Shown: positions 1,396 through 61,255, counted from the stretch's first letter. The stretch is DNA of 64,000 nucleotides from a virus (IMGVR_UViG_3300047160_015156:1-64000), one strand, 5' to 3'. Made by a program: numbers and translations. Notes: generated by a model not told the origin, from the letters alone.

Positions 1396-2117
1396 TCCGC
1401 GGCTTCGACGCGTCGCCGGCGCAAGGGAAGGTCGACTTCCAAGCCGCGAAGGCCGCGGGCCTGGACTTCGTCGTGCTCGAATGCTGGATCGGGAACGATG
1501 GACCGTCGTCCACGTTCCCGGCTCAGGTCGAAGCAGCCAAGGCGGCAGGGCTCGAGGTCATGGCCTACGGGTTCTTCTATCCCCTCCGCCCCGCCCCCGA
1601 TCACCCCGGGCGCGAACCCGAGGCTCAGGCGCGGGAGATCGTGGAGTACGCGTGGAAGTACGCTCCCGGGTGCCTGATCTTCTTGGATGACGAATGGCCG
1701 GCTCCCCAGGATTGGAAGAAGTGGGGGGTGGACGCTCCCTGGATCTCCGAGTCGTGCCGGCGATGCGCGGCGGAGGTGACTCGGCTCTGTCGGGGGAAGA
1801 AACCGGTCATCTACACCTACCTCGATTGGTGGGACCATCTCGCCGCGGGCGAGAACGTATACTGGGCGTCGGATTATGCCTTGTGGCAGGCGTGGTACGT
1901 CAAGGCGTGGCCCAAGGATGGGGACCGGCCGAAGGTGCGAGATCCTTGGACGGATTGGCTCTTTTGGCAGTGGGATGGCGATGGGGGTGAGAAGCTTCCA
2001 GGTGGACAGGATGCCGACTTCTGCGTGTTCAACGGGACGCTCGAGGAGCTGAGGGCGCTGAACGCTCCGCCGCCCGAGGGGCCGGACTTCGCGATTGTGC
2101 ATCCGGACGTTTCCTGA
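1392..2117 (+). CDS. GH25 muramidase (endolysin)
   Basis: GFDASPAQGKVDF..AKAAGLDFV, FLDDE, PVIYT and WLFWQW motifs of GH25 lysozymes; SD GGAGG. Confidence 0.85.
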   Translation: MIRGFDASPAQGKVDFQAAKAAGLDFVVLECWIGNDGPSSTFPAQVEAAKAAGLEVMAYGFFYPLRPAPDHPGREPEAQAREIVEYAWKYAPGCLIFLDDEWPAPQDWKKWGVDAPWISESCRRCAAEVTRLCRGKKPVIYTYLDWWDHLAAGENVYWASDYALWQAWYVKAWPKDGDRPKVRDPWTDWLFWQWDGDGGEKLPGGQDADFCVFNGTLEELRALNAPPPEGPDFAIVHPDVS

Positions 2118-2132
2118 ACATCGATGTTCAGG
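2113..2132. repeat. Dispersed perfect palindrome, copy 1 (CCTGAACATCGATGTTCAGG)
   Basis: Read directly; overlaps the lysin stop codon. Confidence 0.95.
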
Positions 2133-2183
2133 CTCAGTGGCACCCATTGACCTCCCACCGTAGCCTCGCCCTTGGAGGCGCAC

Positions 2184-2750
2184 ATGCATCATGTAGTCGT
2201 TTGGGACCCTTCGGGTACCTATTCGGAAGGGTCCATCGTCGAAACCGTTCGGCTGAACGAGCTCCACGGTCGAGGGGTAGCAACCCTCCCCTGCGTTCCC
2301 GAGCTCTTCAAGTGGGCGGGGTGTTCGGGCTACAGCCGGCGTGGGTGGGGCTCGGGTTGGCCCCTCGACACCATCACCCCCGGGCTCGTCTGCCCCCTGA
2401 CCATGTTCGTGGCCATCCACGCCCCCAAGGTCATCAACTGGTGTGCGCGTCTCGTTCCCGGGGATAGCGCACGCGAGCGCATCAATCGCGGACAGGAACC
2501 GGCTCAGGGCATCCTCCGCATCGCCGCTCACGAGCAGCGCGGCTCACTCCTTCGCGGGTCCATCTCCGAAGACGGGCTGAGGAATGCCGTCGACACGGCG
2601 AAGCTCGGACCCCTCGATCCCTTCGATGGCTGGACCGTGGGAGGACGCGCACGCATCTTCTGCACGGGTGAAGGGTGCTACGGGCTTTCCCTGTACGGAT
2701 TCGCGCCGGGCCTCAAAGTGGCGTGGGTGGCAGCGTCTCTGAGTACCTGA
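2184..2750 (+). CDS. Hypothetical protein
   Basis: ORF with SD GGAGG upstream of ATG 2184; sits in the co-directional gene string. Confidence 0.6.
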   Translation: MHHVVVWDPSGTYSEGSIVETVRLNELHGRGVATLPCVPELFKWAGCSGYSRRGWGSGWPLDTITPGLVCPLTMFVAIHAPKVINWCARLVPGDSARERINRGQEPAQGILRIAAHEQRGSLLRGSISEDGLRNAVDTAKLGPLDPFDGWTVGGRARIFCTGEGCYGLSLYGFAPGLKVAWVAASLST

Positions 2751-2762
2751 CAGGTATACTCC

Positions 2763-3227
2763 ATGCGTTTCCCCGTCTACTTCAAGCGTGACGCGGGCGG
2801 CGCGTCGAATGGGAATCCCACTCTTGGGGACGACGACGCGCCGACGTTCTCGAGTACGCGAGACGAGTCGACTCCCGGAGATCCGTTCCTGACGGATTGC
2901 ATGCTTGCTCACAAGCTGCAGTTCGATCGTCCCACGAACCGGATCGCCGTTGGGTACTGGTTCGATGGGATGTCTCCGGTGACGCTCCCGTGTGACCTCT
3001 GGGTATGGGATTCTAAGTCGGAGAAGTGGTACAAGGCGGCGTCGGGAACGCTCACGAGCGGCGCGCTGACGTACATCCGCATCCCCTACCTCGCCGATTC
3101 TCCGGCGACTCAGTCGAACTTCGACGTCCCGAACCAGAGTCTCCTCGTGATGCTCGTGGTCTCGGACAACTCCGAGCCCTCGGGTACGGTTCATATCGTC
3201 GCGGGTCCCGATTCGGCGATCTTCTAG
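2763..3227 (+). CDS. Hypothetical protein (possible virion protein)
   Basis: 154-aa ORF with phage-like codon usage, tightly packed. Confidence 0.65.
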   Translation: MRFPVYFKRDAGGASNGNPTLGDDDAPTFSSTRDESTPGDPFLTDCMLAHKLQFDRPTNRIAVGYWFDGMSPVTLPCDLWVWDSKSEKWYKAASGTLTSGALTYIRIPYLADSPATQSNFDVPNQSLLVMLVVSDNSEPSGTVHIVAGPDSAIF

Positions 3228-3235
3228 GAGGCCCC

Positions 3236-5358: not shown

Positions 5359-5361
5359 CGC

Positions 5362-7136: not shown

Positions 7137-7145
7137 GCGGGGACC

Positions 7146-20954: not shown

Positions 20955-22265
20955 ATGCCTCTTTCCGTACCCGTACCCCTCGACCAGCTCGCGAATGTCG
21001 GTTCCTCGATCACCATCGAGGAGCTCACCCCGACTACGCCCGGAGGACAGCCTCGCCGAATCGTCCTCATCGGCGGCGCTCTCCCTTTCATGGGACAAGC
21101 GGATTGGAGCGGTGACGGGCGCATCCTGACCACCTGGTATCCGGGCAACGGTACCGAGGCCTCCCAACAGAACCTCGGACCCCAGGATATGCCTAGCGCG
21201 TGGTCGGGGGAGTGGAACCGGACGCGCATGGGTCGCGCCCCCTCCTACTACTTCGACGAATACGGGGCTATGAGCCTCGTGGTGGACCCCCATGTGCTCT
21301 GGGGGAACCTGGATGCCATCCGCATTGCCGGAGCGCGTCTACGGGTCACGTGGAGCGTGCGCGGGCGGTCCGTGACTGGCTCCCCCAAGACGGGCTCCGA
21401 CTCGCCGGTGGACTTCAACCTCGTGCGCGAGGGTCGGATCAAGGTCCTGAAGATCAGTCCCGACCGCCTCACGGACATGAAGTGGAACATGGAGCTCCAC
21501 TGGATGTCCCGCGGGGGGACGCAGGACAAGATCTCGAACGTCCGCCGCGACGACGACATCTCCAAGGCCGTGACCGCGGTTTCGAGCTCGATTGGCGCCC
21601 TGAACGACCTCCTCGCGATCCGGACGCAGGCGATCATTGACTCGAAGTTGGCTTCGGTGACGACCCTGAGTCTCGGCCAGCTCGAGGCGATGGCGAATGC
21701 TCCGCTCAAGGCGGTGAACGCGGCGCTCTCGAAGCTCCGCTACAACCTCGGCCAACTGAACCGGGTGGCGTCGCTGGCGAAGAAGCTGGCAACGACCCCG
21801 GCGGCGGTGGCCAACTCGGTCCTCGACTTCGCCCGCGACACTCAGGCGGTGGCGAACGACTTCGTCGACTCGATGGGCCGGACCCCGATCGAGCTCCAGA
21901 CCAACAAACAGAAGGTGGCCGACCTCGTTCGGGCGTCGAAGTACTTCGGCAACATCACCGACGGCATGAACGACACGGCGAAGCAGAGCTCCGACCTCGA
22001 CATCCGCATGCGGCAAGCGCTCGTAGCCGGCGCGAATCGGGGCTCGCTGGCGGTCAAGGACGCGTCGACGAAGCAGAACGACATCATGGCCGTGTACGTG
22101 TGCAAGACCGGGGACACGCCGCAGCGGGTGTCGCTGAAGTACTACGGCAACCCAGACCAGGGTGATGCAATCCTGAAGGCAAACAGGCGACCGCTGTACA
22201 CACCGTTTTTCAGGCCAGGCCTCATCCTGGTGATCCCGAACCTCTCCCAACTGCCGCGGACCTGA
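20955..22265 (+). CDS. Tail tube initiator / baseplate protein with a C-terminal LysM-like domain
   Basis: C-terminal YVCKTGDTPQRVSLKYYG...ILKAN...PGLILVIP; follows the tape measure. Confidence 0.7.
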   Translation: MPLSVPVPLDQLANVGSSITIEELTPTTPGGQPRRIVLIGGALPFMGQADWSGDGRILTTWYPGNGTEASQQNLGPQDMPSAWSGEWNRTRMGRAPSYYFDEYGAMSLVVDPHVLWGNLDAIRIAGARLRVTWSVRGRSVTGSPKTGSDSPVDFNLVREGRIKVLKISPDRLTDMKWNMELHWMSRGGTQDKISNVRRDDDISKAVTAVSSSIGALNDLLAIRTQAIIDSKLASVTTLSLGQLEAMANAPLKAVNAALSKLRYNLGQLNRVASLAKKLATTPAAVANSVLDFARDTQAVANDFVDSMGRTPIELQTNKQKVADLVRASKYFGNITDGMNDTAKQSSDLDIRMRQALVAGANRGSLAVKDASTKQNDIMAVYVCKTGDTPQRVSLKYYGNPDQGDAILKANRRPLYTPFFRPGLILVIPNLSQLPRT

Positions 22266-22280
22266 ACATCGATGTTCAGG
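22261..22280. repeat. Dispersed perfect palindrome, copy 2 (CCTGAACATCGATGTTCAGG)
   Basis: Read directly; overlaps a stop codon. Confidence 0.95.
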
Positions 22281-31760: not shown

Positions 31761-31778
31761 CTGAACATCGATGTTCAG
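31761..31778. repeat. Dispersed perfect palindrome, copy 3 (CTGAACATCGATGTTCAG)
   Basis: Read directly; 3 nt upstream of GCGGCATCTT. Confidence 0.95.
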
Positions 31779-31781: not shown

Positions 31782-31791
31782 GCGGCATCTT
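31782..31791 (+). promoter_or_regulatory. GCGGCATC(C/T)T promoter-like motif, first of ten exact copies (31782, 33780, 38703, 42649, 48519, 52133, 53501, 59036, 61797, 63201)
   Basis: Recurs 16-19 nt before start codons, or 60-100 nt before downstream genes. Confidence 0.7.
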
Positions 31792-32400: not shown

Positions 32401-33872
32401 TCGACATCATCGTCGACTCTCGTGTCCGTATTCTCCTCTCCCAACTTGGGGAGAGTGTAGCGAATCTCCTACGTGAGGCGTTCACCCACAAGAATCCGAA
32501 ACGTGGGTCGATGCAGCGGGCGAAGATTCGGGGGTGGTGGAACGAACCCCTCGTGATCCCAACGTGGGGGACGAAAGACGGGTACCTCACTCTTCCCCGT
32601 GGAGGCATGGCGAAGGTGCGGAAGATTCTTCAGGGGAATCTCCTTCCTTTTCGTGTCAGGGATAATCGGGTACGAGGGAATACATCTTTCATTCCCGACC
32701 GTTCCGAGTCTCTTCCGCTATGGCCTCACCAGATTCGCATCATCGATGCCTGTCTCCGTCGCGAAAACTGCATCGTCAAGAGCTCTACGGGCTCGGGAAA
32801 GACGTCTGCTCTCCTCGCCCTCGCCGCGCGCATCAAGGTCGACACCTTGGTCATCGTCCACACCACCGCTCTCATGCACCAATGGGTGGAGCGCGCTGTA
32901 TCCGAATTGGGGATGAGGAAGCAGGATGTGGGACTGATAGGTGATGGTCGCTTCAAGGTGTGTGAGCTCACGATCGGGACGCAGAAGTCCGTGGCCAATG
33001 CGGCGAAGGATGATCCCGAGTTCCTCACGCGATGGGGTGCGGTGCTCGTGGATGAAGTCCACATGTTCGCGGCGCGCACCTTTTTTGCCTGCGTGGACCC
33101 GTTCCCGGCCCGGTACCGCATCGGTGTCTCCGACGACCAGCGACGGAAGGATCGACTCGAGTGTCTGATCCATGACCTCTTTGGTGAGGTGGAGGAGTCC
33201 ATCACACATGAGGAGATGGTGGAGGCTGGACACGTCATGGACGTGGAGGTGCTCATCATTCCGACGGAGTTTGAGGCTCCCTGGTACGATGAGGCGCGTG
33301 ATGCCTCATCGAAGGAGATACCTAATTACACTCGTCTTCTTAGCGAGATGGCGGAGGATGCAGAGCGAAACAAGCTCATCTCCGGAATCCTTGGTGTGGA
33401 GCTAACTCGAGGACACCAATGTCTCGTTTTTGCTAAGGAACGTGAGCATTGTCATGTGCTCGAAGCAGAGGGAAAGAGGTATGCGGGTGGGGGAAGGCTC
33501 GTCGGCGGTGCCGGAGAAGATCGTGCCGAGTTCGAGCGGGTTCGACGCGGACTCCGCGCCGGCAAGCTGAAGTTCGCCGTGGGCACCATCCAAGCCTGCG
33601 GAACCGGCGTGGACCTCCCGGGTGTGGAGGTAGGAATCGCGGCGCTTCCGATTCTCAGCAATAGGCAGATGTTTCGCCAGAGTCGGGGGCGAATCTGCCG
33701 CAAGCCAGAAGGTAAAACGACAGCGCGTTTTTATGTCTTGTGGGATCGTCACGTCTTCGGTCTGTCGCATGTGGAGAACGCGGCATCCTGGAATGCAAGT
33801 ACCTACGTGCTCGAGGGCAAGGAGTGGGTGCCCGCACGACAGTACGTGAAAAAGGCGAGGATGGGAGGCTAG
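32397..33872 (+). CDS. Superfamily 2 (DEAD/DEAH-type) helicase
   Basis: STGSGKT Walker A, LVDEVH, GTGVDLPG and QSRGRICR motifs; ATGA overlap. Confidence 0.9.
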   Translation: MIDIIVDSRVRILLSQLGESVANLLREAFTHKNPKRGSMQRAKIRGWWNEPLVIPTWGTKDGYLTLPRGGMAKVRKILQGNLLPFRVRDNRVRGNTSFIPDRSESLPLWPHQIRIIDACLRRENCIVKSSTGSGKTSALLALAARIKVDTLVIVHTTALMHQWVERAVSELGMRKQDVGLIGDGRFKVCELTIGTQKSVANAAKDDPEFLTRWGAVLVDEVHMFAARTFFACVDPFPARYRIGVSDDQRRKDRLECLIHDLFGEVEESITHEEMVEAGHVMDVEVLIIPTEFEAPWYDEARDASSKEIPNYTRLLSEMAEDAERNKLISGILGVELTRGHQCLVFAKEREHCHVLEAEGKRYAGGGRLVGGAGEDRAEFERVRRGLRAGKLKFAVGTIQACGTGVDLPGVEVGIAALPILSNRQMFRQSRGRICRKPEGKTTARFYVLWDRHVFGLSHVENAASWNASTYVLEGKEWVPARQYVKKARMGG

Positions 33873-33874: not shown

Positions 33875-34468
33875 ATGGCGAGGCGTCGAGTCAGCGAAGG
33901 TGCAGCTACGGAAACGGTCGCAGCCGAGGTTCCTCCGCCCCCCAAGACTCCGGCGGCGGAACGAACCCTCGACATGTTCCAAAAGCCGCTCGGCACTGCG
34001 TCGGCGGCCGATCGCGAGGCGGAGATCAAGAAGGTCCAGGACGACGCTCTCGCGCGGGCGAAGGCGGCCAAGGAGCAGGAGATCGACGTCGAACGCGAGG
34101 CCATCCAAGCCGAAGGATCCCTCGATCCCGGCTCCTTCTTCGGTGCCGAGACCAAGCTTCCTCCACCGCCCCCCGTCGTGAACATCGTCAACCAAGGTCC
34201 CACATCCGCTCCCACGGACGCGGAGCTCGCTTCGGGGCAGGAGGGCTCGGAGGTGCACGTGACGAAGGGGGAGGAGATGTATGGAAAGACGGGAACGTTC
34301 TCGTCTTATCGTGTCGGTCCCTTCTCTCTCACGGCCAAGGTCGGTCCGGGACAGACCCGACTCGGGGTTTTCCGCCAGCTCCGTCAGGAGCTCGAGGTGA
34401 TGGCGGATGAGGCCCGGGAGGAGGCGAAGAAGAAGTTCCTCGCTCACTTCCCCACGGCGACTTCGTGA
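33875..34468 (+). CDS. Hypothetical protein
   Basis: SD GGAGG; tightly packed ORF. Confidence 0.65.
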   Translation: MARRRVSEGAATETVAAEVPPPPKTPAAERTLDMFQKPLGTASAADREAEIKKVQDDALARAKAAKEQEIDVEREAIQAEGSLDPGSFFGAETKLPPPPPVVNIVNQGPTSAPTDAELASGQEGSEVHVTKGEEMYGKTGTFSSYRVGPFSLTAKVGPGQTRLGVFRQLRQELEVMADEAREEAKKKFLAHFPTATS

Positions 34469-35022
34469 GGTCGAAGGGGTCAAGCGAGCTCCTCTCGGAC
34501 GCGGAGCTCCGCCAGCTCCGCGGCTTGCCCCCGCTTCTATCCGCGGAGGAAGGACGGAAGATGGCCGCGGACTTCTGCGCGCCGGTATCGTCCAAGCGTG
34601 CGCCGAAGAAGTCCAAGACGATGGGGGATGCGGCCTTCGAGAAGAAGCTCGAGGAGGTCGGGGACATGCTCAAGTCCGGGCGGTGGAACGAGGCGACCCC
34701 CATGCACTTCGTCGCCTTGTACGTCGACCTCTACTATCGCGTCTACGGGATCTTGCCGGAAGATCTGGGGCCGAAGGAACGGGTCATCGCCGGGAAGATG
34801 GCGAGTGGGATGCTGGACCGGACGTTCGGCGGCGACCGGCAGAAGATGAGTCAGTTCATGGCCTGGACGTGGACACGAGAGAAGGAACGCGAGCAGTATC
34901 GCCGGGAAAACAACAAGGACGGCCAGGTGATCGGGTGGGCGTTTCAGTTCGGGAACAAGTTGATCTCGAGCTACCGCATAGCGGAGGCTCGGAAGGCGTC
35001 GCATGGCCCGCCGTCGCGTTGA
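34465..35022 (+). CDS. Hypothetical protein (replication-associated by position)
   Basis: GTGA overlap; directly precedes dnaB. Confidence 0.6.
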   Translation: MRSKGSSELLSDAELRQLRGLPPLLSAEEGRKMAADFCAPVSSKRAPKKSKTMGDAAFEKKLEEVGDMLKSGRWNEATPMHFVALYVDLYYRVYGILPEDLGPKERVIAGKMASGMLDRTFGGDRQKMSQFMAWTWTREKEREQYRRENNKDGQVIGWAFQFGNKLISSYRIAEARKASHGPPSR

Positions 35023-36511: not shown

Positions 36512-37473
36512 GCATCGACCGCGTCGACATCGAGAAGGTTCTCAAGCGCCTTGGGATCGAGGCGAAAGCCCACGGGCGGGAATGGGTGGCCCTCTGTCCA
36601 AACCGAGAGCACAAGGACCGCACGCCGTCGTGGCGAATCCGCGATGAGGTAGGTTCGAGTCGTCACGGGTACCACCACTGTTGGCCATGCGGATTCGGAG
36701 GCTCTGTCGTCTCCCTCATCCAACACGTTCTCCAACTTGAGGACTACGGGGACGCTCGCTCCTGGCTCGAACGCGAAGCCCCGGTGGATCAAAAGCCGAT
36801 CGAGAGAGTAGAGGTGCAGATTCGACCTCCCTCCCTTCGATTCCGACTCCCTTCCGGTGTCGTCGAAGCCCCCATCGAGGAGTGGCCCGGACCCCCGCGG
36901 GAGTACTTCCTCGACACCAGGAAGCTCGAGGCGTGGCAGGTAGATCGTTGGGGGGTGGGATATGCGATCGAGGGACGGCTCAAGGGACGGCTCGTCCTCG
37001 TCTCGCGTGACGCCCGCGGCCGACCCCTCAGGTACACCGCGCGCTCGTTCACGGGAGCTTTGAAGCGGTACCTCGAACCCGAACCCGAGGAGGGGGCGAA
37101 GATGAACGCGATGTTCGGGGAGCAGCATTGGCCGGCGCTCGAGGAGCGTCACACCCTCTTCCTGGTCGAGGGAGCGATCAACGGGCTCGCCCTCGAAGCC
37201 GAGCTCCCGGGCATCTACTTCGCCGCGACGGCCGGGAGTGAGATGCGGGGTCTCTACGGTGCCAAGTTGGCGACGTGGAAACGGGTATTCACGATGTCGG
37301 ACCCTGACAAGGCGGGTGACCGCCTTGGGGAGGAGATCGGGCTCGGGTGCGCGCGGCACACGACCATCCAACGTCTTCGACTCGAGGAAGGCTTCGACCC
37401 TGCCAAGATGAGGGAAAAGCGACCGGGCGAGCTCGGAGCTATCATCCGTTCGTGGCTACGAAAGTCCACGTAG
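36508..37473 (+). CDS. dnaG: DNA primase (CHC2 zinc finger + TOPRIM)
   Basis: ALCP..EH.DRTPS...HCWPCGFGG; LVEGAING; SDPDKAG. Confidence 0.85.
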   Translation: MSIDRVDIEKVLKRLGIEAKAHGREWVALCPNREHKDRTPSWRIRDEVGSSRHGYHHCWPCGFGGSVVSLIQHVLQLEDYGDARSWLEREAPVDQKPIERVEVQIRPPSLRFRLPSGVVEAPIEEWPGPPREYFLDTRKLEAWQVDRWGVGYAIEGRLKGRLVLVSRDARGRPLRYTARSFTGALKRYLEPEPEEGAKMNAMFGEQHWPALEERHTLFLVEGAINGLALEAELPGIYFAATAGSEMRGLYGAKLATWKRVFTMSDPDKAGDRLGEEIGLGCARHTTIQRLRLEEGFDPAKMREKRPGELGAIIRSWLRKST

Positions 37474-37754
37474 TTGAAGCGTCACCGGAATTCGGTCTCC
37501 TCGCTCAGATCGATCGTCCGGCGGCAAAGAAGTCCCTAAAGAGGGCGTACGTGATCGCACGGTGTCATGCTGCTCGCGCGGCATTGTTCCTCGGTCTGAC
37601 CCGACGTCGTTTCTACAAGTGGGTGGTGAGACTGGGGCTCCTACATTGGATGCAGGAGACAACGAAGATCGCGCGGCGGCAGGGGTGGTTTCGTGACCAC
37701 GTCACACCCGATCGGTTCGTCAGAAAGTTCACACCTTCTTTGACGCAGTCGTGA
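37452..37754 (+). CDS. Fis-type helix-turn-helix protein
   Basis: HAARAALFLGLTRRRFYKWVVRLGL resembles the Fis/NtrC HTH; start uncertain. Confidence 0.6.
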   Translation: MATKVHVVEASPEFGLLAQIDRPAAKKSLKRAYVIARCHAARAALFLGLTRRRFYKWVVRLGLLHWMQETTKIARRQGWFRDHVTPDRFVRKFTPSLTQS

Positions 37755-37877: not shown

Positions 37878-40067
37878 ATGAGCAATCACACCGGGGATGC
37901 GGCGGCGGTGAAGCACCTTTCGAAGTCTCGCCAGGACGCGAAAGAGATCTGGAATGGCCCCACGACTAGGGCGTGGGTGAAGACGAAGAAGGCCGGGGGC
38001 AAGGCGTGGGAGCGCTTTGACGAGCTCGCGACCAAGGTGGTCGCTCGAGAGATCACCTTCGAGGTCTTCGTGAAGGAGACGAAGGCGGAGTTCAGGGTCA
38101 TGGCGCTCGCGGCGACGCGCCGCCGCAGGCCTCCGTACTGGTTCGAGCTCGAGGACATCATCACCCTCCTCGTCTCGCACTTCTGGTACTACGCCTTCGT
38201 CCACGTCGGGCGCGACGGTCAAGTGGGTTTCGTCCCTGGTAAGGGGACGACCGAAGGCGAGTACCTTCGGTGGAACATCATGCAACGGGTGCAGAAGGAT
38301 CTCGGCCGCGCCCGCGGCGAGAACATGCACACGCAACGCATGTTCGGACCCTCACCGGAGGTGGTGACGTCGACGGGCGACTTCTCTCAGGTTCAGGTGT
38401 GGAAGGACCACGGGACTGAGGGTGAGTCGTTCGAGATCGAGTTCGATGAGCATCGGCGGTGTGACGCCCTCGAGCGCCTCACGCGCGCCGCGCGCGAGTT
38501 CGTGGTTCAGAACGAGGTGGAGAAGCAGCTCTCCCAGACCCGGAATCGGAAGACGAGGCAAGGCGAGATCCGAGAGTTCATCCTCGGTTCGCACCCGAAG
38601 GACGTGCGGGAGTCGCTGAAGACTCTCGGGTTCAGGAAGGGTGACGAGCTCGAGGTGGTCGAGAACATGAGCGAGCTCATCGCACGCGGCATGATGACGG
38701 GCGCGGCATCCTCTTCTGAGCCAGCATCGTGCGAAGAGTCAGAGCTCACTCGCGGAGCGCACCGTCGCGGTCGAGTTTCTTGTCTCGGAAAGGTCGTTAT
38801 GAGCATCGTGGGCGCCACGCGGATCGATCGCGTGTGGGAAGGCAAACTTCGCGAAAACTACGCGTCGATCACCAATGACTTCGCTCTCGGGAAGACGAAG
38901 GAAGAGGTCGTTCGAGGTCTCGAACAGCACTTCGAGAAAAACACGCCGAAGGACAAGCTCGCCAACTGCAACATCTGCGGCGGCCATTCGGACGAGTCGC
39001 TTCCGGCGTGTCCCTACTGCGAGGACCAGGGGCCGGAGGAGCTCGGCGCTCCCGTTCCCGCGGAGTCGGGCGTGGTTGCCACCGCGAAGGCATCGGCACC
39101 GGAGTCGGAGGCCCTACCGGGCACGGAGATCGACGCCTCGAAGATGGAGGCGGAGACCCTCGAGCAGCCGAAGAAGAAGGGTGGACGGAAGAGCGCTCAG
39201 GAGAAGATGAACGCTCAGATGGAGGTCGCAGAGAAGAAGAAGGTCAAGGCGCCGAAGGCTTCACCGAAGCCGAGTACGCCGGTCCTCGACATCGCCGAAG
39301 CCAAACCGGTGGTGACGGAGGCGGACCTCGATCGCGAGCTCATGAATTATCGGGAAGCCGGACGGCGGAATGCTGCCAGTTTCTGGCACATGGGCGTGGC
39401 GATCTCGAAGATCCATCTCGGCTTGTGGGAACAGCGTCGGGATGGGGAGAAACGCAAGTACAAGTCGTGGAATCAGTTCGTGGAAGCGGAGTTGAAGATC
39501 GCGGTTCAGCATGCGAACCGCCTTCGAAACGTGGCAGATCACTTCACCGAAGAGTCTGCGGCGAAGTACGGCGCCACCATTCTCATGGTCATCGATCGTG
39601 CTCCGAAGGAAGAGCATTCTCGTTTGATGGAGAAGGTGGACAACGGAGATGCCTCTTCGGTGAGTGCCCTCGCGAAAGAGGTCAAGGAGATTCGCGAGGC
39701 GAAGGGCATCACGGTCCTCGATTCCGAGGAGAACAAGAAAAAGTCGGAGACGAAGACCAACGCGATGCCGTCGAAGGCGGCACGAGAGAAGGCCGCAGCC
39801 AAGCGGCTCGAGAAGAAGGCATCGATCACTTTTGGGCTCAAGTCGGAAACGGGCATGAGCGATCCTCTCATGGTCCGACCCGACGGTCCTCAGTCGGATC
39901 CGGTTCCCTTTATCTGCCCCCCGGAGTTGAGGGAGACTCTCGGGAAGTGTTACGCATCGATGTTCAAGAGCATCAACGGCATTACCATGCACCAAGCGTG
40001 TGTGGTGAATGACGACGGCACCGTCCAGTTTCGGTGGACAGGCACTCGTGAGGCCGAAGACGACTGA
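37878..40067 (+). CDS. Divergent sigma-70-like N-terminal domain in frame with a Zn-ribbon / Lys-rich protein (probable second start at 38799)
   Basis: ELEDII...FVPGKGTTEGEYLRWNIMQRV resembles sigma region 2.2-2.4; CNICGG..CPYC further downstream; internal promoter motif at 38703. Confidence 0.5.
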   Translation: MSNHTGDAAAVKHLSKSRQDAKEIWNGPTTRAWVKTKKAGGKAWERFDELATKVVAREITFEVFVKETKAEFRVMALAATRRRRPPYWFELEDIITLLVSHFWYYAFVHVGRDGQVGFVPGKGTTEGEYLRWNIMQRVQKDLGRARGENMHTQRMFGPSPEVVTSTGDFSQVQVWKDHGTEGESFEIEFDEHRRCDALERLTRAAREFVVQNEVEKQLSQTRNRKTRQGEIREFILGSHPKDVRESLKTLGFRKGDELEVVENMSELIARGMMTGAASSSEPASCEESELTRGAHRRGRVSCLGKVVMSIVGATRIDRVWEGKLRENYASITNDFALGKTKEEVVRGLEQHFEKNTPKDKLANCNICGGHSDESLPACPYCEDQGPEELGAPVPAESGVVATAKASAPESEALPGTEIDASKMEAETLEQPKKKGGRKSAQEKMNAQMEVAEKKKVKAPKASPKPSTPVLDIAEAKPVVTEADLDRELMNYREAGRRNAASFWHMGVAISKIHLGLWEQRRDGEKRKYKSWNQFVEAELKIAVQHANRLRNVADHFTEESAAKYGATILMVIDRAPKEEHSRLMEKVDNGDASSVSALAKEVKEIREAKGITVLDSEENKKKSETKTNAMPSKAAREKAAAKRLEKKASITFGLKSETGMSDPLMVRPDGPQSDPVPFICPPELRETLGKCYASMFKSINGITMHQACVVNDDGTVQFRWTGTREAEDD

Positions 40068-40081: not shown

Positions 40082-42721
40082 ATGGAGGTGGTCAATGCCT
40101 TCGTCGATGGTCCCGACCTGATCATCCTCGAGCGCGAAGGCGATCGGATCGTCGAGCACAAGACTCGGCCGGAGTACTCGTTCTTTGTCGAGACCGAGCA
40201 ACTTCAGGACGTGGACTTTGCCCGTCAGATTCGGTCGGCCTCCGTCGTCCGCGCGATGGTCAGCGAGGGGCGGTGGACGAGAATCGTCTGGTCTGATGAC
40301 TTCGTCCGGAAGGAGATGCTCTACGGGCGCCTCATCCGGTCGAAGAATCCGGTCACGGGCGAGGAGGAGCGCCGGCGCAATCCATCCCCCTTCCAGACTC
40401 GTGGGATCACCACCTACGAAGGGGACGTGGACCCGGTCCGACGGTGGTTCACGGACACGGGCGCGACGATCGCCAAGCCGCGTCGTGCCTACTTCGACCT
40501 CGAGACCGATTCAAGGGTGAACTTCGCTCATGCGAAGATGGGGCGATCGCGCATCATCTCGATCGCGGCGTGCACCGAGGACGAGTCGAAGAAGTTTCTC
40601 CAGGTCATCAACGCATGGTCCGACTCCGAAGAGCGCCGGATCATCTCCGCGTTCTTCGACTGGATCGATGAGGTCGGTGCCGACCAGCTCATCGCCTGGA
40701 ACGGGGATGGGTTCGACTTCCTCGTGCTCCGGGAACGCATCGAGCGCTTGGGGCTCAACCTCGACATGCGCCGTAAAAACTGGCTCGACCACATGGTCCT
40801 GTTCCGGCGCATGAACATGAACTCCTCCGACTCGGGCGAGGAGAAACAGTCGATGGCCCTGAACGCGATCGCGTTCGCGCAGCTCGGCGAGGGGAAGGAG
40901 GAGATTCCGCCGGAGGTCGCAAAGCGGTGGCCCGGGCGCTCCCTCGGTTCGCTCTCGTATGAGCTCTGGGAAGCCGGCGGCGAGTTCCGGGAGCTCCTGA
41001 CCCGGTACAACATGAAGGACACGCTCTTGATGCCTCGCATCGAGCGGAAAACGGGCTACATCGCTCTCTTCGACACCCTCGCGGACGTGTGCCGGGTGCT
41101 CCCGAACTCCGTCGGGCTTCAGCCGACGAAGCAGATGGACGGCTTCATGCTCCGCCTCGCCCTCGAGCGGAAACATCACTTCGCCACGAAGGTTTTCCGG
41201 GAGAAGGGGGAGGAGGAAGAGCGGGACCAGTTCGCCGGCGCGTTCGTGATGCAGCCTCGAACCGTGGGCTCCAAAAAGAAGGAGGACGACTGGACTCCGG
41301 ACCAGGCGGAAGCGTGGCGCCTGAAGATGAAGCTCGAGAACGGCATCCTTCGGGATGTTCACGTCGCCGACTTCGCCTCGCTCTATCCCTCGATCATCAT
41401 CACCTGGAACATGTCGCCGGAGACGAAGCTGCAAAACGCAGCCGTCAACGGGCCCATCGCCCCGGGTACCTGCAGATCGCCGCTCACGGGGGTGTGCTTC
41501 GATGTGACGGTCGAGGGCATTCTACCAGCGGCCCTGAAGACCATGATCGCGATGCGGAAGGTATGGTCCGACCGCGCGGCCAAGCTTCCACCGGGTACCC
41601 CGGAGGCCAAGGAGGCCCAGCGCCGGTCCATGGCGTACAAGGTGGCCGCCAACTCCTTCTATGGCGTCGTCGGTTCCCCCTTCTCCAGGTACTTCGATCG
41701 CGAGGTCGCAGAGTCTGTCACCCAAAACGGGGTGTGGCTGATCAAGCGCACGATTGCCGAAGCCGAGGAGCGGGGCATGGAGGTGCTCTACGGCGATACC
41801 GATTCGTTCTTTGCCATGAACGTGACGCAGACCGAGTACGAGGCCTTCGTCTCGTGGTGCAATGATACCTTGTACCCAGACATCCTACAGAAGGTCGGGT
41901 GCACGGAGAACCGGATCAAGCTCGCATACGAGAAGGCGTTCTCGTTGGTCATGTTCACGGCGAAGAAGCGATACGCCGGGTGTTTCCTCCACTATAAGGG
42001 CACGGCGGCAAAACCGGTGCCAGGTGAGGGAGAGGTCTTCGACAAGAAGCTCCATTCGAGGCCGGAGATCAAGGGGTTCGAGTACAAGCGCGGGGATGTG
42101 AGCGTGCTCGCGCGGAGACTGCAGGAAAAGGCGATCATGACGCTCATGCGCGGGGTGGTGAGGCCCGAGGCCTACCGTCAGCTCCTCAGCGAAGCCCTCA
42201 CCCATGTCGCGACCGCGGAGCTCCCTCTCGAGGAGGTTCAGATCTCGAAGTCCCTGTCTCAGGAGACGAAGAAGTACCACCGGAAGACGGCCAAGGGCGC
42301 GGACCAAGCCGTACCCCCGCACGTGCGTGTGGCGGAGGTGCTCGAAGCGAAAGGCCTCGAGCTCGGCGAAGGTTCCCGCGTCTCCTACGTGGTCACGGAC
42401 AGCTCCGACGGCATCAAGGCGATACCGGCGCAGGACTACAAGGGTCAGATCGATCGTTACTACTTGTGGGAGAGCATGGTCTATCCCCCGACGCAGCGGC
42501 TCCTACAGGCCGCGTTCCCGGCTCAGGATTGGGTGACAGGCCTCGAGCGCATTCGGCCGAAGCAGACTCGGGGGAAGCGCGTACTACCGGGGCAGGAGTC
42601 TCTCTTCGGGGACGCGGCCGACCCGATCGGGGAGCACGCGCGCAAGTTGCGGCATCTTGAAACCGCCTGGGTGAACGCGATGACGCGATCGCTTGAGGCG
42701 GAGGTCGCATGGCGCGGGTGA
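40082..42721 (+). CDS. polB: Family B DNA polymerase with 3'-5' exonuclease
   Basis: FDLET, WNGDGFDF, YNMKD, DFASLYPSII, KVAANSFYG, YGDTDS, KKRYA. Confidence 0.95.
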   Translation: MEVVNAFVDGPDLIILEREGDRIVEHKTRPEYSFFVETEQLQDVDFARQIRSASVVRAMVSEGRWTRIVWSDDFVRKEMLYGRLIRSKNPVTGEEERRRNPSPFQTRGITTYEGDVDPVRRWFTDTGATIAKPRRAYFDLETDSRVNFAHAKMGRSRIISIAACTEDESKKFLQVINAWSDSEERRIISAFFDWIDEVGADQLIAWNGDGFDFLVLRERIERLGLNLDMRRKNWLDHMVLFRRMNMNSSDSGEEKQSMALNAIAFAQLGEGKEEIPPEVAKRWPGRSLGSLSYELWEAGGEFRELLTRYNMKDTLLMPRIERKTGYIALFDTLADVCRVLPNSVGLQPTKQMDGFMLRLALERKHHFATKVFREKGEEEERDQFAGAFVMQPRTVGSKKKEDDWTPDQAEAWRLKMKLENGILRDVHVADFASLYPSIIITWNMSPETKLQNAAVNGPIAPGTCRSPLTGVCFDVTVEGILPAALKTMIAMRKVWSDRAAKLPPGTPEAKEAQRRSMAYKVAANSFYGVVGSPFSRYFDREVAESVTQNGVWLIKRTIAEAEERGMEVLYGDTDSFFAMNVTQTEYEAFVSWCNDTLYPDILQKVGCTENRIKLAYEKAFSLVMFTAKKRYAGCFLHYKGTAAKPVPGEGEVFDKKLHSRPEIKGFEYKRGDVSVLARRLQEKAIMTLMRGVVRPEAYRQLLSEALTHVATAELPLEEVQISKSLSQETKKYHRKTAKGADQAVPPHVRVAEVLEAKGLELGEGSRVSYVVTDSSDGIKAIPAQDYKGQIDRYYLWESMVYPPTQRLLQAAFPAQDWVTGLERIRPKQTRGKRVLPGQESLFGDAADPIGEHARKLRHLETAWVNAMTRSLEAEVAWRG

Positions 42722-43389
42722 AGAAGGAGAGTGGTCAGAAACTCGAGGATGTGACGAAGACGATCGAGCTCGAAGGAGCAAAGCTGAACATCGATGTTCA
42801 GCAAAGCCGGGAGCTCCTCGACGCCCTCGAATCCGCCGACTCCCAAACCGACCTCGAAAGCGCCCGCGCCGGCCTCTTCGAATCGGCGAACGCGGCCGAG
42901 GAGCGGCCCATCGACCCCCGCATGGGGAAGCTCGTAGAGCGCACGTTCAAGCCTCTCGATTGGGAGAAGGTTCTCGATCGCTTCGAGGCTTGGATGAGCC
43001 TCGGAGACCGGCGCACGGAGGAGCAGTTCATCCGCCGCGCGCACGAGGAGGGTCCGGAGATCGTCAAGGACATCTACGACGTCTTCATCCAAGTCCGGTT
43101 CGCGCGTGAGGCTTGGGAGCTCGAGAATCAGCTCATGCTCGGCGGCATGCGTGACGAGGCCCAAAAGGTCCTCGAGCGCGAGAAGGAGCGCAAGCTGAGG
43201 ACGAAGGCGATCACCATCGATGACGTCACCCACAAGGCGGCATCGATGTTCCCCGACGAATGGGCGGCGCAAGAGAAGCGCAGGCTTCAATACAAGCTTA
43301 TCGAAGATCGCTCCAAGCATTGTGTGGAGATAGGTACCACACGATGTCGGGTGCTTGATTCGATGATGGCTCGACTCCGCGTGACGTAG
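42709..43389 (+). CDS. Hypothetical helical protein
   Basis: SD GGAGG; overlaps the end of polB. Confidence 0.65.
   Translation: MARVKKESGQKLEDVTKTIELEGAKLNIDVQQSRELLDALESADSQTDLESARAGLFESANAAEERPIDPRMGKLVERTFKPLDWEKVLDRFEAWMSLGDRRTEEQFIRRAHEEGPEIVKDIYDVFIQVRFAREAWELENQLMLGGMRDEAQKVLEREKERKLRTKAITIDDVTHKAASMFPDEWAAQEKRRLQYKLIEDRSKHCVEIGTTRCRVLDSMMARLRVT
42783..42802. repeat. Dispersed perfect palindrome, copy 4 (GCTGAACATCGATGTTCAGC), inside a CDS
   Basis: Read directly; encodes LNIDVQ. Confidence 0.95.
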
Positions 43390-52947: not shown

Positions 52948-53499
52948 ATGGCGCGAAAGAAGAACACCGCCGCGGCGCTCGCGCCGGCGGCGAATGACTC
53001 CGCACCGCTCGCGAAGATCGCGAAGCAGTCCTACAAGATCGTCCCCATCGACTCGATCCAGAATCACCCCAAGAACTACAAGGAGGGTGATGTCGACGCG
53101 ATCGGAGAATCTGTCGAGAGGAACGACTTCTACGGCGCGTGTGTGGTCCAGAAGAGCACGGGTTTCGTTCTCGTCGGAAACCATCGTCGAATCTCGGCGA
53201 AGGTGAAGGGAATGAAGGAGCTCCCGGTCATCATCATCGACTGCGACGATGCGACGGCGGAGCGGATCATGCTTGTGGACAACCGGACGGCCCAGCTCGG
53301 ATCGAACAACACCCTCGCTCTCCACATGCTTCTCGAGGACCAGGCGAAACGGGATCGTGGGCTCGTCGGAACCGGGTATGACGAAGCCGACCTGAACCGC
53401 CTACGCGAACGAGCAAAGGCTCCGGTCGAAGTTCCGAAGCCACCGGAGAGTGTGATGAGACACACCTACACATGCCCCAAGTGCGGTCATCAGTCCTGA
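52948..53499 (+). CDS. ParB/Srx N-terminal-domain protein with a C-terminal Zn knuckle
   Basis: IVPIDSIQNHPKN, VGNHR, LVDNRTA, CPKCG. Confidence 0.8.
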   Translation: MARKKNTAAALAPAANDSAPLAKIAKQSYKIVPIDSIQNHPKNYKEGDVDAIGESVERNDFYGACVVQKSTGFVLVGNHRRISAKVKGMKELPVIIIDCDDATAERIMLVDNRTAQLGSNNTLALHMLLEDQAKRDRGLVGTGYDEADLNRLRERAKAPVEVPKPPESVMRHTYTCPKCGHQS

Positions 53500-57025: not shown

Positions 57026-57052
57026 GGAGACTGAGGAAGGGCAGCGCGAGCG

Positions 57053-57730: not shown

Positions 57731-57786
57731 CAGACTTTCCACAAGATTCACGTATCATCAAAGCATCGGGCGGGGAGGAATACCGG

Positions 57787-58864: not shown

Positions 58865-58884
58865 ACGTGGTCTATTCCCTCGAC

Positions 58885-59034: not shown

Positions 59035-59052
59035 CGCGGCATCTTCTCCACC

Positions 59053-59751
59053 ATGGAGAAGGTGAACGTCCTGGATCACGGCTACGTCGGCCTCGTGGAG
59101 GCGTGGGGCTCCGATGAGCGAATCATCGAGGCCGCGCGGATGTCTACGAGCGGGGGCTTCGTGTCCTGGGATGCCTATGAAGGGCATCCCAAGGGAGACG
59201 CTGGCCTCCTCTCGTACCTCTGGAAGAACGAGCACGCGACGCCGTTCGAGATGGTGGGTCTGACCTTTGAGGTCCTGGCCCCCATCTTCGTTCTCCGGGA
59301 GTGGCATCGTCACCGCGTCCCCTTCGGCTACAACGAGGCCAGCGCTCGCTACGCCCCGCTCCCCGACGTCAACTACCGGCCTTCGGTGGAGCGTCTCTTC
59401 ATGTCCGCAGGCGCGAACAAGCAAGCGGCTTCCACCGGCCTCGAGCTAACGCTCGAGAACGCGGCGACGTGGGATGAGCGTGTGGAGCACTTCTACGATC
59501 TCGCGCAAGAGCTCTACGAGTTCGGCCTCACGGTTGGAATTCCGAAGGAGCTCGCGCGCATCGTCCTTCCCGTAGGTCGCTACTCGAAGATGCGGGCGAC
59601 GGGCAATCTCCGTGGCTGGCTCGCGTTCATGAAGCTCCGAGCGCACCCGAGGGCGCAGTACGAGATCCGCGTTTACGCTGACGCGATCGGAAAGTTCATC
59701 GCCGAGAAGTTTCCGAGGACATGGCACCTCTATCAAGAGGGGAAGGGATGA
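59053..59751 (+). CDS. thyX: FAD-dependent thymidylate synthase
   Basis: H.TPFE, APIFV.REWHRHR...NEASARY, KELARIVLP, AQYEIR. Confidence 0.95.
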   Translation: MEKVNVLDHGYVGLVEAWGSDERIIEAARMSTSGGFVSWDAYEGHPKGDAGLLSYLWKNEHATPFEMVGLTFEVLAPIFVLREWHRHRVPFGYNEASARYAPLPDVNYRPSVERLFMSAGANKQAASTGLELTLENAATWDERVEHFYDLAQELYEFGLTVGIPKELARIVLPVGRYSKMRATGNLRGWLAFMKLRAHPRAQYEIRVYADAIGKFIAEKFPRTWHLYQEGKG

Positions 59752-59754
59752 GAG

Positions 59755-60189
59755 ATGCGGAAGAGCTGGGCCGACTACTTCTTGGGGATCGCGCAGGCGG
59801 TCTCGGAGCGGGCAACCTGCGATCGACTCCATGTCGGTTGCGTACTCGTGGAAACGGACACCAAGGTCATTCTCGCGACCGGGTACAACGGGAGCGTCCG
59901 CGGCGCTCCCCACTGCGACGATGTCGGGCACGACATGGATCACGGCCACTGCGTGCGCACTGTTCACGCCGAGGGCAATGCTATCGCTCAAGCCGCGTCT
60001 CGTGGCATATCTGTTGCCGGCGCTACCGCCTACCTCACGGCGCGACCGTGTTGGCCCTGTTGCAAGTTGCTCCTCAACTCGGGGATCGTTCGCATCGTCT
60101 ACGCGGCATCGTATCGGGATGATGAGCGGGTCACGAATGCGTGCATGCAAGCGCGCGTCGATCTCGTGCATCACCCGGTGACACCATGA
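59755..60189 (+). CDS. dCMP deaminase
   Basis: TGYNG, HAEGNAI, PCWPC. Confidence 0.92.
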   Translation: MRKSWADYFLGIAQAVSERATCDRLHVGCVLVETDTKVILATGYNGSVRGAPHCDDVGHDMDHGHCVRTVHAEGNAIAQAASRGISVAGATAYLTARPCWPCCKLLLNSGIVRIVYAASYRDDERVTNACMQARVDLVHHPVTP

Positions 60190-60716
60190 CGCTCGAGAAT
60201 CTCCCTGATCCGCCGGAGTCCGAAGTCCTGCGAAAGATGCCCCTGCAGAAGCCGGGGAAGTCCAAGCAAGACTATGCGACGCCGATGGAGTTCATCCGCG
60301 CGGTCGAGGGTCGCTTCGGGACGCTGCGCCACGACCTTGCCGCACATGAAGGAAACCATCGATGCGAAACGTTTTTCAGCCCGGAGCAGAATTCGTTGGT
60401 CCAGCCGTGGGCCCAACTGTTCCCGGAGGGGAATCTCTGGCTCAATCCGCCCTACTCGGACATCGGGCCGTGGGCGAAGAAGTGCGCGGAGGAGTCGATC
60501 AAGAGAGGCGGACTGATCCTCTTCCTCACGCCTGCGAGCATCGGATCGGAGTGGTTCGCGGACCATGTGGAGGGGAAGGCGCTGGTCCTCGGTCTCAGAC
60601 CACGCCTTTCATTCGACGGGAAGAACCCGTACCCGAAGGACTGCATCCTGAGTGTGTACGGGATCGATGTACTCCACCGCCCCCTCCGCGGATTCGAGAC
60701 GTGGAGGTGGAAGTGA
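60186..60716 (+). CDS. Phage Dam-type N6-adenine methyltransferase
   Basis: DYATP, DLAA...N, WLNPPYS, WF, RLSF. Confidence 0.85.
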   Translation: MTLENLPDPPESEVLRKMPLQKPGKSKQDYATPMEFIRAVEGRFGTLRHDLAAHEGNHRCETFFSPEQNSLVQPWAQLFPEGNLWLNPPYSDIGPWAKKCAEESIKRGGLILFLTPASIGSEWFADHVEGKALVLGLRPRLSFDGKNPYPKDCILSVYGIDVLHRPLRGFETWRWK

Positions 60717-61234
60717 GCTCGAGGTCCCCTCTTCCGAACGACTTCGACATCGCGCCGGCGAAGTTCTACGCCCCCGCGGCGACGTCCAAGCCCACGGAGC
60801 CACCTGACTCTGATCGGGGTCGCAAAAGCGCGCTGGATAGTCTCCTGGGCGCGGCGCGGAGGGTTGAGGAGGCGCTCCTCAGGGCGCGGCTTCAGCGTGA
60901 GGTCACTCCCGAGCTCGACGCAGAGATCGCGACGATGACGAAGGCGCGGTACGTGTTCGAGCGCGCACTGGGGCCGGTCGTGCACCAACTCAAGTGCGAT
61001 CCCGAGCCTTTCAACGCGGTCAAGCGGGGGCTCAAGTTCTGCGAGGTCCGGAAGTTCGACCGAGACTTCCGTGTGGGTGACATCCTCATCCTGTCCTCCT
61101 ATGACCGAGAGAAGAAAGTCTTCACGGGGGAGCGGCTCAGGGTCGAGGTCACCCACATCGTGCCGCCCGGGGAATACGGTTTGCCGGAGGACGTGGGAGT
61201 TCTGAGCATCGAGGTCACCATCGAGACGATCTGA
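60713..61234 (+). CDS. ASCH/DUF3850-domain protein
   Basis: HQLK..PEPFNAV.RG.KFCEVRK.DRDFRVGD.L.L. Confidence 0.8.
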   Translation: MSSRSPLPNDFDIAPAKFYAPAATSKPTEPPDSDRGRKSALDSLLGAARRVEEALLRARLQREVTPELDAEIATMTKARYVFERALGPVVHQLKCDPEPFNAVKRGLKFCEVRKFDRDFRVGDILILSSYDREKKVFTGERLRVEVTHIVPPGEYGLPEDVGVLSIEVTIETI

Positions 61235-61237
61235 TCT

Positions 61238-61255
61238 CTGAACATCGATGTTCAG
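61238..61255. repeat. Dispersed perfect palindrome, copy 5 (CTGAACATCGATGTTCAG)
   Basis: Read directly; intergenic, 3 nt after a stop codon. Confidence 0.95.

Follow-up and report, generated by a model that had tools for sequence, protein, structure and literature searches.

Phage-private, CG-centred palindromes dispersed through the genomes of an uncultured phage clade, and a sigma-linked protein as their candidate reader

The window analyzed here covers the initial 64 kb of an IMG/VR virus record of 98,216 bp (IMGVR_UViG_3300047160_015156, genome G000 in the comparisons), and its subject is an 18-bp perfect palindrome, CTGAACATCGATGTTCAG, that recurs along the record. Nearly all genes lie on the + strand. 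The left part encodes lysis functions (a C1 peptidase and a GH25 lysozyme), a portal, a MuF-like protein and structural proteins up to ~31 kb. The replication/recombination arm encodes an SF2 helicase, DnaB, a primase, PolB, a RecA-like protein, a DinG-like helicase, SbcD and SbcC, a PD-(D/E)XK nuclease and a ParB_N-like protein. Two further proteins encoded in this arm, X and Y, bear on how the palindromes may be read. The phage is apparently virulent.

Five exact copies of CTGAACATCGATGTTCAG lie in the window (Table 1), where the first-pass annotation of this DNA had placed them. Their number and positions were confirmed by a search tolerating up to 3 mismatches. Dinucleotide-preserving shuffles (n = 100) gave a mean of 0.05 matches and in no case reached five. 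Scanning the full genome added two further exact copies, at 70130 and 80335, for a total of seven, and found no degenerate copies with 1–3 mismatches in the window or in the whole record. Three sites earlier described as weaker relatives are merely one half-site (39950), a 10-bp core (63062) and an inverted repeat with odd spacing (31634). No other contig matched in an exact-pattern scan of IMG/VR. Three copies extend to 20-bp palindromes, two with C..G flanks (2113 and 22261) and one with G..C (42783), also as previously described. The gaps between the seven copies are more even than chance, with a coefficient of variation (CV) of 0.34 versus 0.83 for random placement (P = 0.0075), and the smallest measures 8.9 kb (P = 0.002). 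Outside the full palindromes there are five isolated 9-nt half-sites (TGAACATCG at 1035, 7228, 34179 and 57099; CGATGTTCA at 39958), whereas chance alone would give ~0.75 for any 9-mer counted on the two strands; they may be sites that have decayed, sites for a monomer or a by-product of codon choice.

The TGA at palindrome positions 2–4 serves as the stop codon of the upstream gene in four of the seven copies, namely copies 1 and 2 and those at 70130 (gene 69504–70133) and 80335 (gene 79370–80338). The remaining placements given by the first-pass annotation also hold: two copies in the window overlap TGA stops, another (copy 5) follows a stop by 3 nt, and copy 3 lies at the first promoter proposed for the replication arm, ending 3 nt before the first occurrence of the promoter-like motif GCGGCATC. 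The gene downstream of copy 2 begins at 22288, in a frame that differs from that of the upstream gene.

Table 1 Positions of the palindrome copies and associated features in the window
Feature	Position	Strand	Remarks
Palindrome copy 1	2114..2131	.	Between lysis and packaging/structural genes; TGA 2115–2117 is the stop of the GH25 lysozyme gene 1392–2117
Palindrome copy 2	22262..22279	.	Between two large structural-arm (probably tail) genes; TGA is the stop of gene 20955–22265
Palindrome copy 3	31761..31778	.	Intergenic, at the junction of structural and replication arms; 3 nt upstream of the first GCGGCATC
GCGGCATC promoter-like motif, first copy	31782..31789	+	Directly after palindrome copy 3
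Protein X, predicted ECF-type sigma factor	37878..38798	+	In frame with Y here; separate from Y in relatives
Protein Y, best candidate binder	38799..40067	+	Zinc ribbon and DUF3102-like domain
Gene hosting copy 4	42709..43389	+	Directly after PolB, conserved across the clade; GGAGG ribosome-binding site before ATG
Palindrome copy 4	42784..42801	.	62 nt past the PolB stop; encodes LNIDVQ in the N-terminal linker of the next gene
ParB N-terminal-domain-like protein, 183 amino acids	52948..53499	+	Rival binder, not favoured
Palindrome copy 5	61238..61255	.	Begins 3 nt past the stop of DUF3850 gene 60362–61234

Copy 4 is the one copy that the first-pass annotation had held to be intact within a coding sequence, and it does occupy codons 26–31 of the open reading frame (ORF) 42709–43389. 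It sits where the coding constraint on this gene is minimal: residues 1–27 are modelled with pLDDT <50, residues 10–40 are hypervariable and rich in indels across 23 homologues, and in the closest relatives (PolB 72–77% identical, P0002–P0010) the linker matching copy 4 is hypervariable at the protein level. Homologues from several close relatives (P0133, P0136 and P0141) have the peptide (P)EIDL(G/A) in common in the otherwise hypervariable linker. Read at the peptide level, PEIDLG with suitable synonymous codons would spell an ATCGAT-centred 18-bp palindrome, CCCGAGATCGATCTCGGG. The protein model of 42709–43389 is all-helical with weak matches to T4 and cyanophage UvsY, and the gene, which lies upstream of the RecA-like gene, possibly encodes the recombination mediator of a T4-like UvsX/UvsY pair.

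Related loci were collected via PolB alignment from IMG/VR, JGI metagenomes and GTDB genomes. PolB homologues of G000 are numerous; single-protein searches of IMG/VR and isolated phages returned closest matches of only 25–41% identity and no cultured relative. The phages of the clade are uncultured, ~100 kb in size, and come from soil, sediment and freshwater. Based on a repeated-palindrome scan, at least 15 related phages (PolB 33–63% identical) each carry their own 16–28-bp perfect palindrome, including GGATGATCGATCATCC, GTCAAGACGTCTTGAC, CGGTGATCGATCACCG, CGCAACACGTGTTGCG, CGGAACCCGGGTTCCG and GGTCGCCGCGGCGACC. Six whole genomes were compared: G000; G001 (64.8 kb, incomplete), with 6 copies of GTCTCCCCGGGGAGAC; G002 (107 kb), with 12 copies of TGTCGCCCCGGGGCGACA, mostly lengthened to 24 bp; G003 (101.6 kb), with 16 copies of TGTC[T/C]CCTCGAGG[A/G]GACA; and the phage contigs G005 (103 kb), with 9 copies of GT[C/A]AA[G/C]ACGT[C/G]TT[G/T]AC, and G006 (88 kb), with 9 copies of GGAACCCCGGGGTTCC. 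Ten further loci also bear a palindrome of their own. The sites are therefore present clade-wide in related phages, each phage having its own sequence.

A quick PolB tree shows palindrome-bearing phages scattered through the whole clade, and sister taxa carry unrelated palindromes. No repeated palindrome of ≥16 bp was found in a comparison set of 75 distant PolB loci (22–28% identity, 1.03 Mb in total). The G005 contig is binned in a Methylocystis metagenome-assembled genome (MAG), and its palindrome is absent from the rest of that 3.4-Mb bin; the palindrome of G006 has one match with 2 mismatches, and no other, in the rest of its 3.9-Mb bin. The likeness to a LexA box and the host binder that had been entertained for the G000 sites find no support here, as the palindrome varies by phage and is confined to the phage contig in two MAGs.

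Letter-perfect copies could also arise as assembly or adapter artefacts, or as functionless, tiny selfish insertions; an 18-bp insert preserves the reading frame, and the TGA and ATG of the palindrome are in one frame. However, the genes flanking copy 2 and the copy at 80335 are in different frames, which makes these true gene junctions and not split genes, and different palindromes occupy equivalent places in data from many independent metagenomes and assemblers. Gene interiors are avoided, and a search of G000–G003 for a RAYT/Y1 transposase (PF01797) found none; the palindromes, perfect through their centre, do not have the form of repetitive extragenic palindromic (REP) elements, which are imperfect palindromes bearing a conserved 5′ tetranucleotide and depend on a transposase of the IS200/IS605 type. 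The copies are almost certainly neither artefacts nor insertions of this kind.

The palindromes of all 15 families have an even length and a CG centre. In these genomes 45% of 10–14-bp palindromes are CG-centred (p ~6e-6, or ~3e-4 if 10 families are taken as independent). In G003 and G005 one half-site can change without the other, and some of the resulting combinations would be C-A, A-G or G-G mismatches if folded into a hairpin. An RNA hairpin formed by the G000 palindrome has a 7–8-bp stem and a 4-nt loop, with energies of −10 to −15.5 kcal/mol and z of −1.2 to −2.8, and no U-tract or T-run follows any of the seven copies, which thus do not resemble intrinsic (Rho-independent) terminators with their stable GC-rich stem and U-tract. 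The independent half-site variation, the CG centre and the modest hairpin together favour duplex DNA read by a symmetric dimer over an RNA or single-stranded-DNA structure. An RNA-level element, that is, a hairpin at gene 3′ ends acting in termination, in protection of mRNA ends or as the target of a phage RNA-binding or processing protein, would suit the presence of the upstream stop within four copies, the single-strand gene orientation and the stem that can form. It is nevertheless very unlikely: the G000 hairpins are weak, those of two other genomes would contain mismatches, palindromy extends through the CG centre in every family where a loop needs none, and a structural role does not call for letter-perfect identity among copies. 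The earlier proposal of a site used genome-wide by a dimeric protein is well supported by these sequence comparisons, and we are confident, short of certainty, that the palindromes have a phage-encoded dimeric DNA-binding partner.

The best candidate for this partner is encoded just upstream of PolB. The gene order X-Y-PolB was found in 24 out of 24 loci, and neither X nor Y is present in the 75 distant PolB loci. Based on profile comparisons, X is classed with the ECF-type sigma factors of the sigma-70 family. Four X orthologues match Sigma70_r2 above the cut-off (G000 X alone has no Pfam match), and a profile built from 18 X sequences matches the ECF sigma CnrH (E = 1e-7) over residues 45–175, spanning regions 2 and 4. 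In G000, X and Y form a single ORF of 729 codons (37878–40067), versus two genes in 23 of 23 relatives examined; Y alone has 404–419 amino acids in the closest relatives. Either the fusion is genuine, or a lost stop codon or a sequencing error accounts for it. The linker between X and Y contains GCGGCATCCT at 38703 and an ATG at 38799, so that Y is possibly also made on its own.

Four parts make up Y. The N-terminal region is helical and contains a CxxC...CPxC zinc ribbon; a linker that is charged and disordered leads to the conserved, helical DUF3102-like domain (model residues ~190–321), and a small domain of beta strands forms the C terminus. Its AlphaFold model has a mean pLDDT of 76, rising to 92–98 per 10-residue block over residues 171–300. 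When residues 190–321 were compared with 48,161 chains using VIA-align, the best or near-best matches were ParB-parS (6s6h, Z 7.5), Spo0J (1vz0, Z 6.7; root-mean-square deviation 2.6 over 89 residues), KorB (8qa8, Z 6.0), KorB-operator (1r71, Z 5.8) and SopB-DNA (3mkw, Z 5.0). Foldseek returned ParB and Noc at a probability of ~0.9 for the same residues, and also Spo0J-parS and SopB-DNA. Because the Z scores are middling, we take a ParB/KorB-type fold of the modelled domain as likely, not certain. At the sequence level Y has no match to a ParB-type DNA-binding domain. DUF3102 (PF11300, cut-off 24.4 bits) is matched by the Y orthologue of locus L093 with 24.7 bits (E = 3e-5, profile positions 18–126 of 129) and more weakly by those of L115 (15.3 bits) and L122 (the G001 orthologue, 14.3 bits). 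The literature on DUF3102 is essentially empty, a tblastn search of isolated phages with the Y domain gave no match, and visual inspection of the putative recognition helix of Y yielded no recognition code.

Neither ORF 37878–40067 nor any of five Y orthologues shows a Pfam match to ParB_N, the ParB/Srx CTP-binding domain characterized by a GxxR motif, and a search of G000–G003 for a ParA/IncC partner (PF13614) found only P-loop matches inside DnaB. Lacking both the CTPase domain and the ParA partner, Y is not filed as a member of the ParB/KorB family, and a clamp or sliding mechanism cannot be assumed for it.

We compared the identity of the Y DUF3102-like domain with the 8 centre-adjacent half-site positions across the 15 phages with a defined palindrome, regressing out PolB identity. 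The partial Mantel correlation is 0.38 (permutation p = 0.0004, 0.0003 in robustness runs), and it is stable for 5–9 half-site positions and without the G001–G003 clade (p = 0.003). The corresponding values for controls are 0.01 for sigma X, 0.10 for the C-terminal domain of Y, 0.16 for the N-terminal part of Y, 0.09 for the primase, 0.22 for DnaB, 0.13 for the RecA-like protein, 0.03 for a 402-amino-acid protein, 0.18 for a loader-like protein and −0.10 for the UvsY-like protein. In matched subsets the Y domain was above the control each time. This co-variation supports Y as the reader of the palindromes in a way that is suggestive only. From predicted fold and co-variation we lean, by a little, towards Y being the partner.

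Two other conserved genes were considered and set aside. The product of 42709–43389, the gene hosting copy 4, was rejected as a binder for its all-helical, weakly UvsY-like model and a similarity that does not track the palindromes (r given above). The 185-amino-acid protein 34465–35022, encoded between the SF2 helicase and DnaB in six of six genomes, shows no significant co-variation; sequence searches of Pfam, PHROG and PDB return nothing for it, and a protein atlas yields only a faint lead to a T4 gp59-type helicase loader.

Among the binders proposed by the first-pass annotation, the Lys-rich C-terminal half of 37878–40067 gained support from fold and co-variation, whereas the ParB-like protein at 52948 and a Fis-type helix-turn-helix protein did not. 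For the latter (ORF 37347–37754), none of the other five genomes contains a detectable relative. The ParB_N-like protein matches phage 'ParB-like partition protein' families (phrog_723, E = 7e-29), with only its N-terminal domain ParB-like, and is present in G000, G001, G003 and G006. It was not detected in G002, which is 98% complete and has 12 sites; in G005, on which no family search was run, the G000 protein had no homologue by blastp. The reader could be this protein, a fast-evolving small phage protein without a detectable orthologue, or a host factor. The case for Y is indirect, given the middling fold scores and a co-variation that depends on sampling, specificity proteins often diverge past BLAST recognition, and the phrog_723 match is strong. 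On the other hand, all nine control proteins or domains fall behind the Y domain in co-variation, the ParB_N-like protein was not detected in every site-bearing genome, and a host factor is unlikely given sister phages with unrelated palindromes and the absence of the palindromes from the rest of two MAGs. We regard a binder other than Y as unlikely, without dismissing it.

Across the clade the sites prefer gene boundaries. Based on crude calls from G+C content at third codon positions (GC3), 46 out of 59 sites are not deep within genes, compared with 16 expected (p ~6e-16); gene calls throughout are heuristic. In 12 of the 16 phages in which the region is visible, a site adjoins the gene after PolB, meaning that it lies between the conserved parts of PolB and the following gene or immediately past that gene. 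Another position is upstream of the SF2 helicase, where the replication module begins; it is occupied in G000–G003 and G006. In 7 of 15 phages (a count read from coordinates) sites adjoin the sigma-Y gene pair.

The density of sites is one per 6–14 kb, and in each of the six genomes the gaps have a lower CV than the mean for random placement. Spacing in G005 is even (CV 0.35, P = 0.0015), as in G000, which may point to a chromosome-level role. In G001–G003, evenness is not significant and close pairs of sites lie 127–773 bp apart. In G002 (loci L126–L131; 19844/19971, 38519/38801 and 32485–32952 of its record) palindrome pairs lie only 127 and 282 bp apart, in stretches where the crude gene caller found few genes; these palindrome pairs may mark an origin or control region. 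Of the four IMG/VR records searched (G000–G003), G002 alone has a tyrosine integrase match.

Even spacing would suit sites that organize, compact or position the replicating phage chromosome, as anchoring or loading sites of the parS, matS or Noc-binding-site (NBS) kind, possibly for a sliding or spreading protein that covers the genome, without controlling particular promoters. Positions turn over between relatives while density is kept, the CG-centred palindromes are of the 16-bp class to which parS and the Noc binding site belong, Y has a predicted ParB-type DNA-binding fold, and four genomes encode the separate ParB_N-like protein. Yet G000 has no ParA-like ATPase, integrase or plasmid-prophage hallmarks, Y lacks the CTPase domain, the ParB_N-like protein is not universal, and genomes with close pairs show no significant evenness; nor would genome organization require gene-boundary preference or juxtaposition with a promoter-like motif. 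Integrases were likewise not found in G001 and G003. In its classical form, as plasmid-prophage partition, the parS-like role raised earlier is unlikely because neither a ParA-like ATPase nor an integrase was found in G000, and we consider genome organization as a whole rather improbable.

The genes common to all six genomes encode the SF2 helicase, the 185-amino-acid protein, DnaB, the primase, PolB, the RecA-like protein, SbcD, SbcC, X and Y, together with G000 gene 84646–86466, which we take, judged by size alone, to be the putative large terminase. Sites could serve replication or recombination, as dispersed origins or entry points for recombination-dependent replication, read by a replisome-associated protein or processed by an SbcCD-type nuclease. 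Apart from sigma, Y and the presumed terminase, the universal genes are those of replication and recombination and include the SbcD- and SbcC-like genes; the replication module has conserved sites on both sides, ahead of the SF2 helicase and just past PolB; and even spacing suits multiple initiation points. But palindromes of 16–28 bp are short for extruding a cruciform, the sites are not consistently accompanied by iterons or an AT-rich unwinding element, 7–16 origins per 100 kb would be unusual, and the independent variation of half-sites speaks against a hairpin substrate. A replication role seems to us improbable, slightly more so than genome organization.

Evidence relating to transcription comes from the GCGGCATC motif, with 31 occurrences on the + strand of G000 versus 4 on the − strand, all at 31.8–91 kb in the non-structural part (31782–63201 in the window and on to 91085 of the record). 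It is often found 8–12 nt ahead of start codons, before ATG without a Shine-Dalgarno sequence, and no conserved −35 element was seen upstream of its copies. These sequence features suggest a phage-specific promoter for leaderless mRNAs that has only a −10 element. The motif, as GCGGCAT(C/T), lies within 3 nt after copy 3 and 6 nt after the copy at 80335, and a variant with 2 mismatches lies downstream of the copy at 70130. The chance of such adjacency is 0.015 per site, which by our own binomial estimate gives P ~0.002 for 2 of 5 sites. In the relatives, codon-driven words dominated the output of a search for strand-biased 8-mers resembling promoters. A second repeat family occupies 89964–96140 of the record, with at least 5 copies of a module of at least 30 bp (core CCCGACACTCATCA...GGAGTGAGGAACTCCCGGGG) ahead of small ORFs; this region holds no palindrome copy.

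We favour transcription control as the function of the sites for four reasons: they prefer gene boundaries, some adjoin the sigma-Y genes, Y is linked to a sigma factor, and KorB offers a precedent (PMC11790492). The sites, their occurrence across the clade, their placement and their symmetry are observed; binding by a protein is inferred from them. It is a tentative choice that falls just short of probable and is the weakest step of the explanation. In the mechanism we propose, the palindromes would be double-stranded DNA docking sites for a two-fold symmetric phage-encoded protein, and site and protein would co-evolve, leaving each phage of the clade with a private palindrome. Y bound at gene or operon boundaries about every 6–14 kb would form an operator or insulator network, as KorB does at the OB sites of RK2, and would switch or delimit the transcription units of the phage programme. 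Whether the palindromes as a whole constitute such a Y-bound, KorB-like network is, in our judgement, evenly balanced. A more speculative version, which we rate as improbable, makes Y a sigma-linked DNA anchor on evenly spread private palindromes that holds, delivers or sequesters the ECF sigma, so that dispersed 'sigma depots', besides individual promoters, license transcription; X and Y would be translated as one chain here, and rapid co-evolution would insulate the network from co-infecting relatives.

Several observations weigh against a Y-bound operator network. Only 2–3 of the 7 sites in G000 adjoin the promoter-like motif. The Z scores of the Y fold are all below 8 for a helical domain, and VIA-align warns that such values can arise by chance; the Y domain of G000 itself does not match DUF3102, and Y is without the N-terminal CTPase domain of ParB. 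Judged by eye, the putative recognition helix is similar in the sisters G000 and L085, yet their palindromes differ. The 15 phages of the co-variation sample are few and non-independent, and the correlation falls to r = 0.16–0.19 (p = 0.03–0.13) in subsets without L085, L094 or L097 and to r = 0.26 (p = 0.03) once close pairs are removed. Of 24 Y-encoding loci, 9 show no repeated palindrome in the 3–22 kb available, where sites may be sparse or degenerate. Finally, site positions are mostly non-syntenic between G000 and its syntenic relative G005, and this turnover, combined with even spacing in both genomes, fits a genome-wide structural role at least as well as it fits gene-specific regulation.

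The closest working analogue of the proposed network is the KorB/OB system. Plasmid RK2 carries 12 dispersed OB sites. On this IncP-1 plasmid, KorB acts at OB operators that lie at promoters or away from them (PMC11790492). Both systems have near-identical short palindromes dispersed over a whole replicon, a global regulatory network rather than a single operator is formed by KorB and proposed here, and the KorB binder is of the ParB-type helix-turn-helix class, with KorB structures among the best fold matches of the Y model. In contrast to KorB, Y has no CTPase domain and no IncC/ParA partner, carries a zinc ribbon, and is encoded beside or in frame with an ECF sigma factor. The replicon here is apparently a virulent phage, and its sites are 16–28 bp, even in length, CG-centred and different in each phage. 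As sites, the seven exact 18-mers and the 15 CG-centred families do have the character of ParB/KorB-type sites, which are short palindromes (13–16 bp) conserved among copies. ParB-parS and Noc-NBS also provide perfect, CG-centred palindromes of ~16 bp read by a dimer, with a replicon-private, co-evolving specificity and a fold that the Y model is predicted to share. They differ in the CTPase domain and ParA, both missing here, and in clustering at the origin, compared with the genome-wide distribution and gene-boundary preference seen in the phages.

Some phages also carry dispersed sites. Stoperators of Cluster A mycobacteriophages are asymmetric 13–14-bp sites, oriented with transcription, at which the immunity repressor of a temperate phage binds and blocks transcription. 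They resemble the palindromes in being many, near-identical and located in short intergenic gaps genome-wide, but the sites described here are perfect palindromes in a genome, G000, in which no lysogeny genes were found, and they do not qualify as stoperators. The linear plasmid-prophage N15 has dispersed centromere sites, IR1–IR4, bound by SopB (PMC7205306). These are likewise a few separate inverted-repeat sites in a phage genome and are read by a ParB-family protein; N15, however, is a plasmid prophage with SopA/SopB, whereas neither a ParA-like gene nor an integrase or protelomerase hallmark turned up here. Among phages, the nearest precedent for the phenomenon itself comes from Cluster O mycobacteriophages, which contain 17-bp dyad repeats (34 copies of TGTTCGG-N3-CCGAACA in Corndog) of unknown binder and function (PMC4351075). 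Invariant arms, dozens of dispersed copies and a mostly intergenic location or one near gene starts are common to both. The Cluster O repeats are odd in length, have a variable 3-bp spacer, are ~3 times denser and have a sequence common to 5 of 5 phages, whereas here the sequence is private to each phage and a candidate binder can be named.

Dispersed identical palindromes were thus known from a few phages, such as those of Cluster O, without an identified binder or function. New here are the rule that the palindromes are centred on CG, the conserved site beside the gene that follows PolB, the sigma-Y-PolB order seen in all 24 loci and a co-variation implicating Y. The feature characterizes a whole clade of uncultured phages, its sequence changes with each phage, and it comes with a binder candidate that can be tested. 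If binding by Y is confirmed, it would be the first function for a DUF3102-like domain, and the clade would offer at least 15 orthogonal protein-operator pairs for studies of specificity evolution and as parts for synthetic biology. The association with an ECF sigma factor of the phage suggests an undescribed organization of the transcription programme of a virulent phage.

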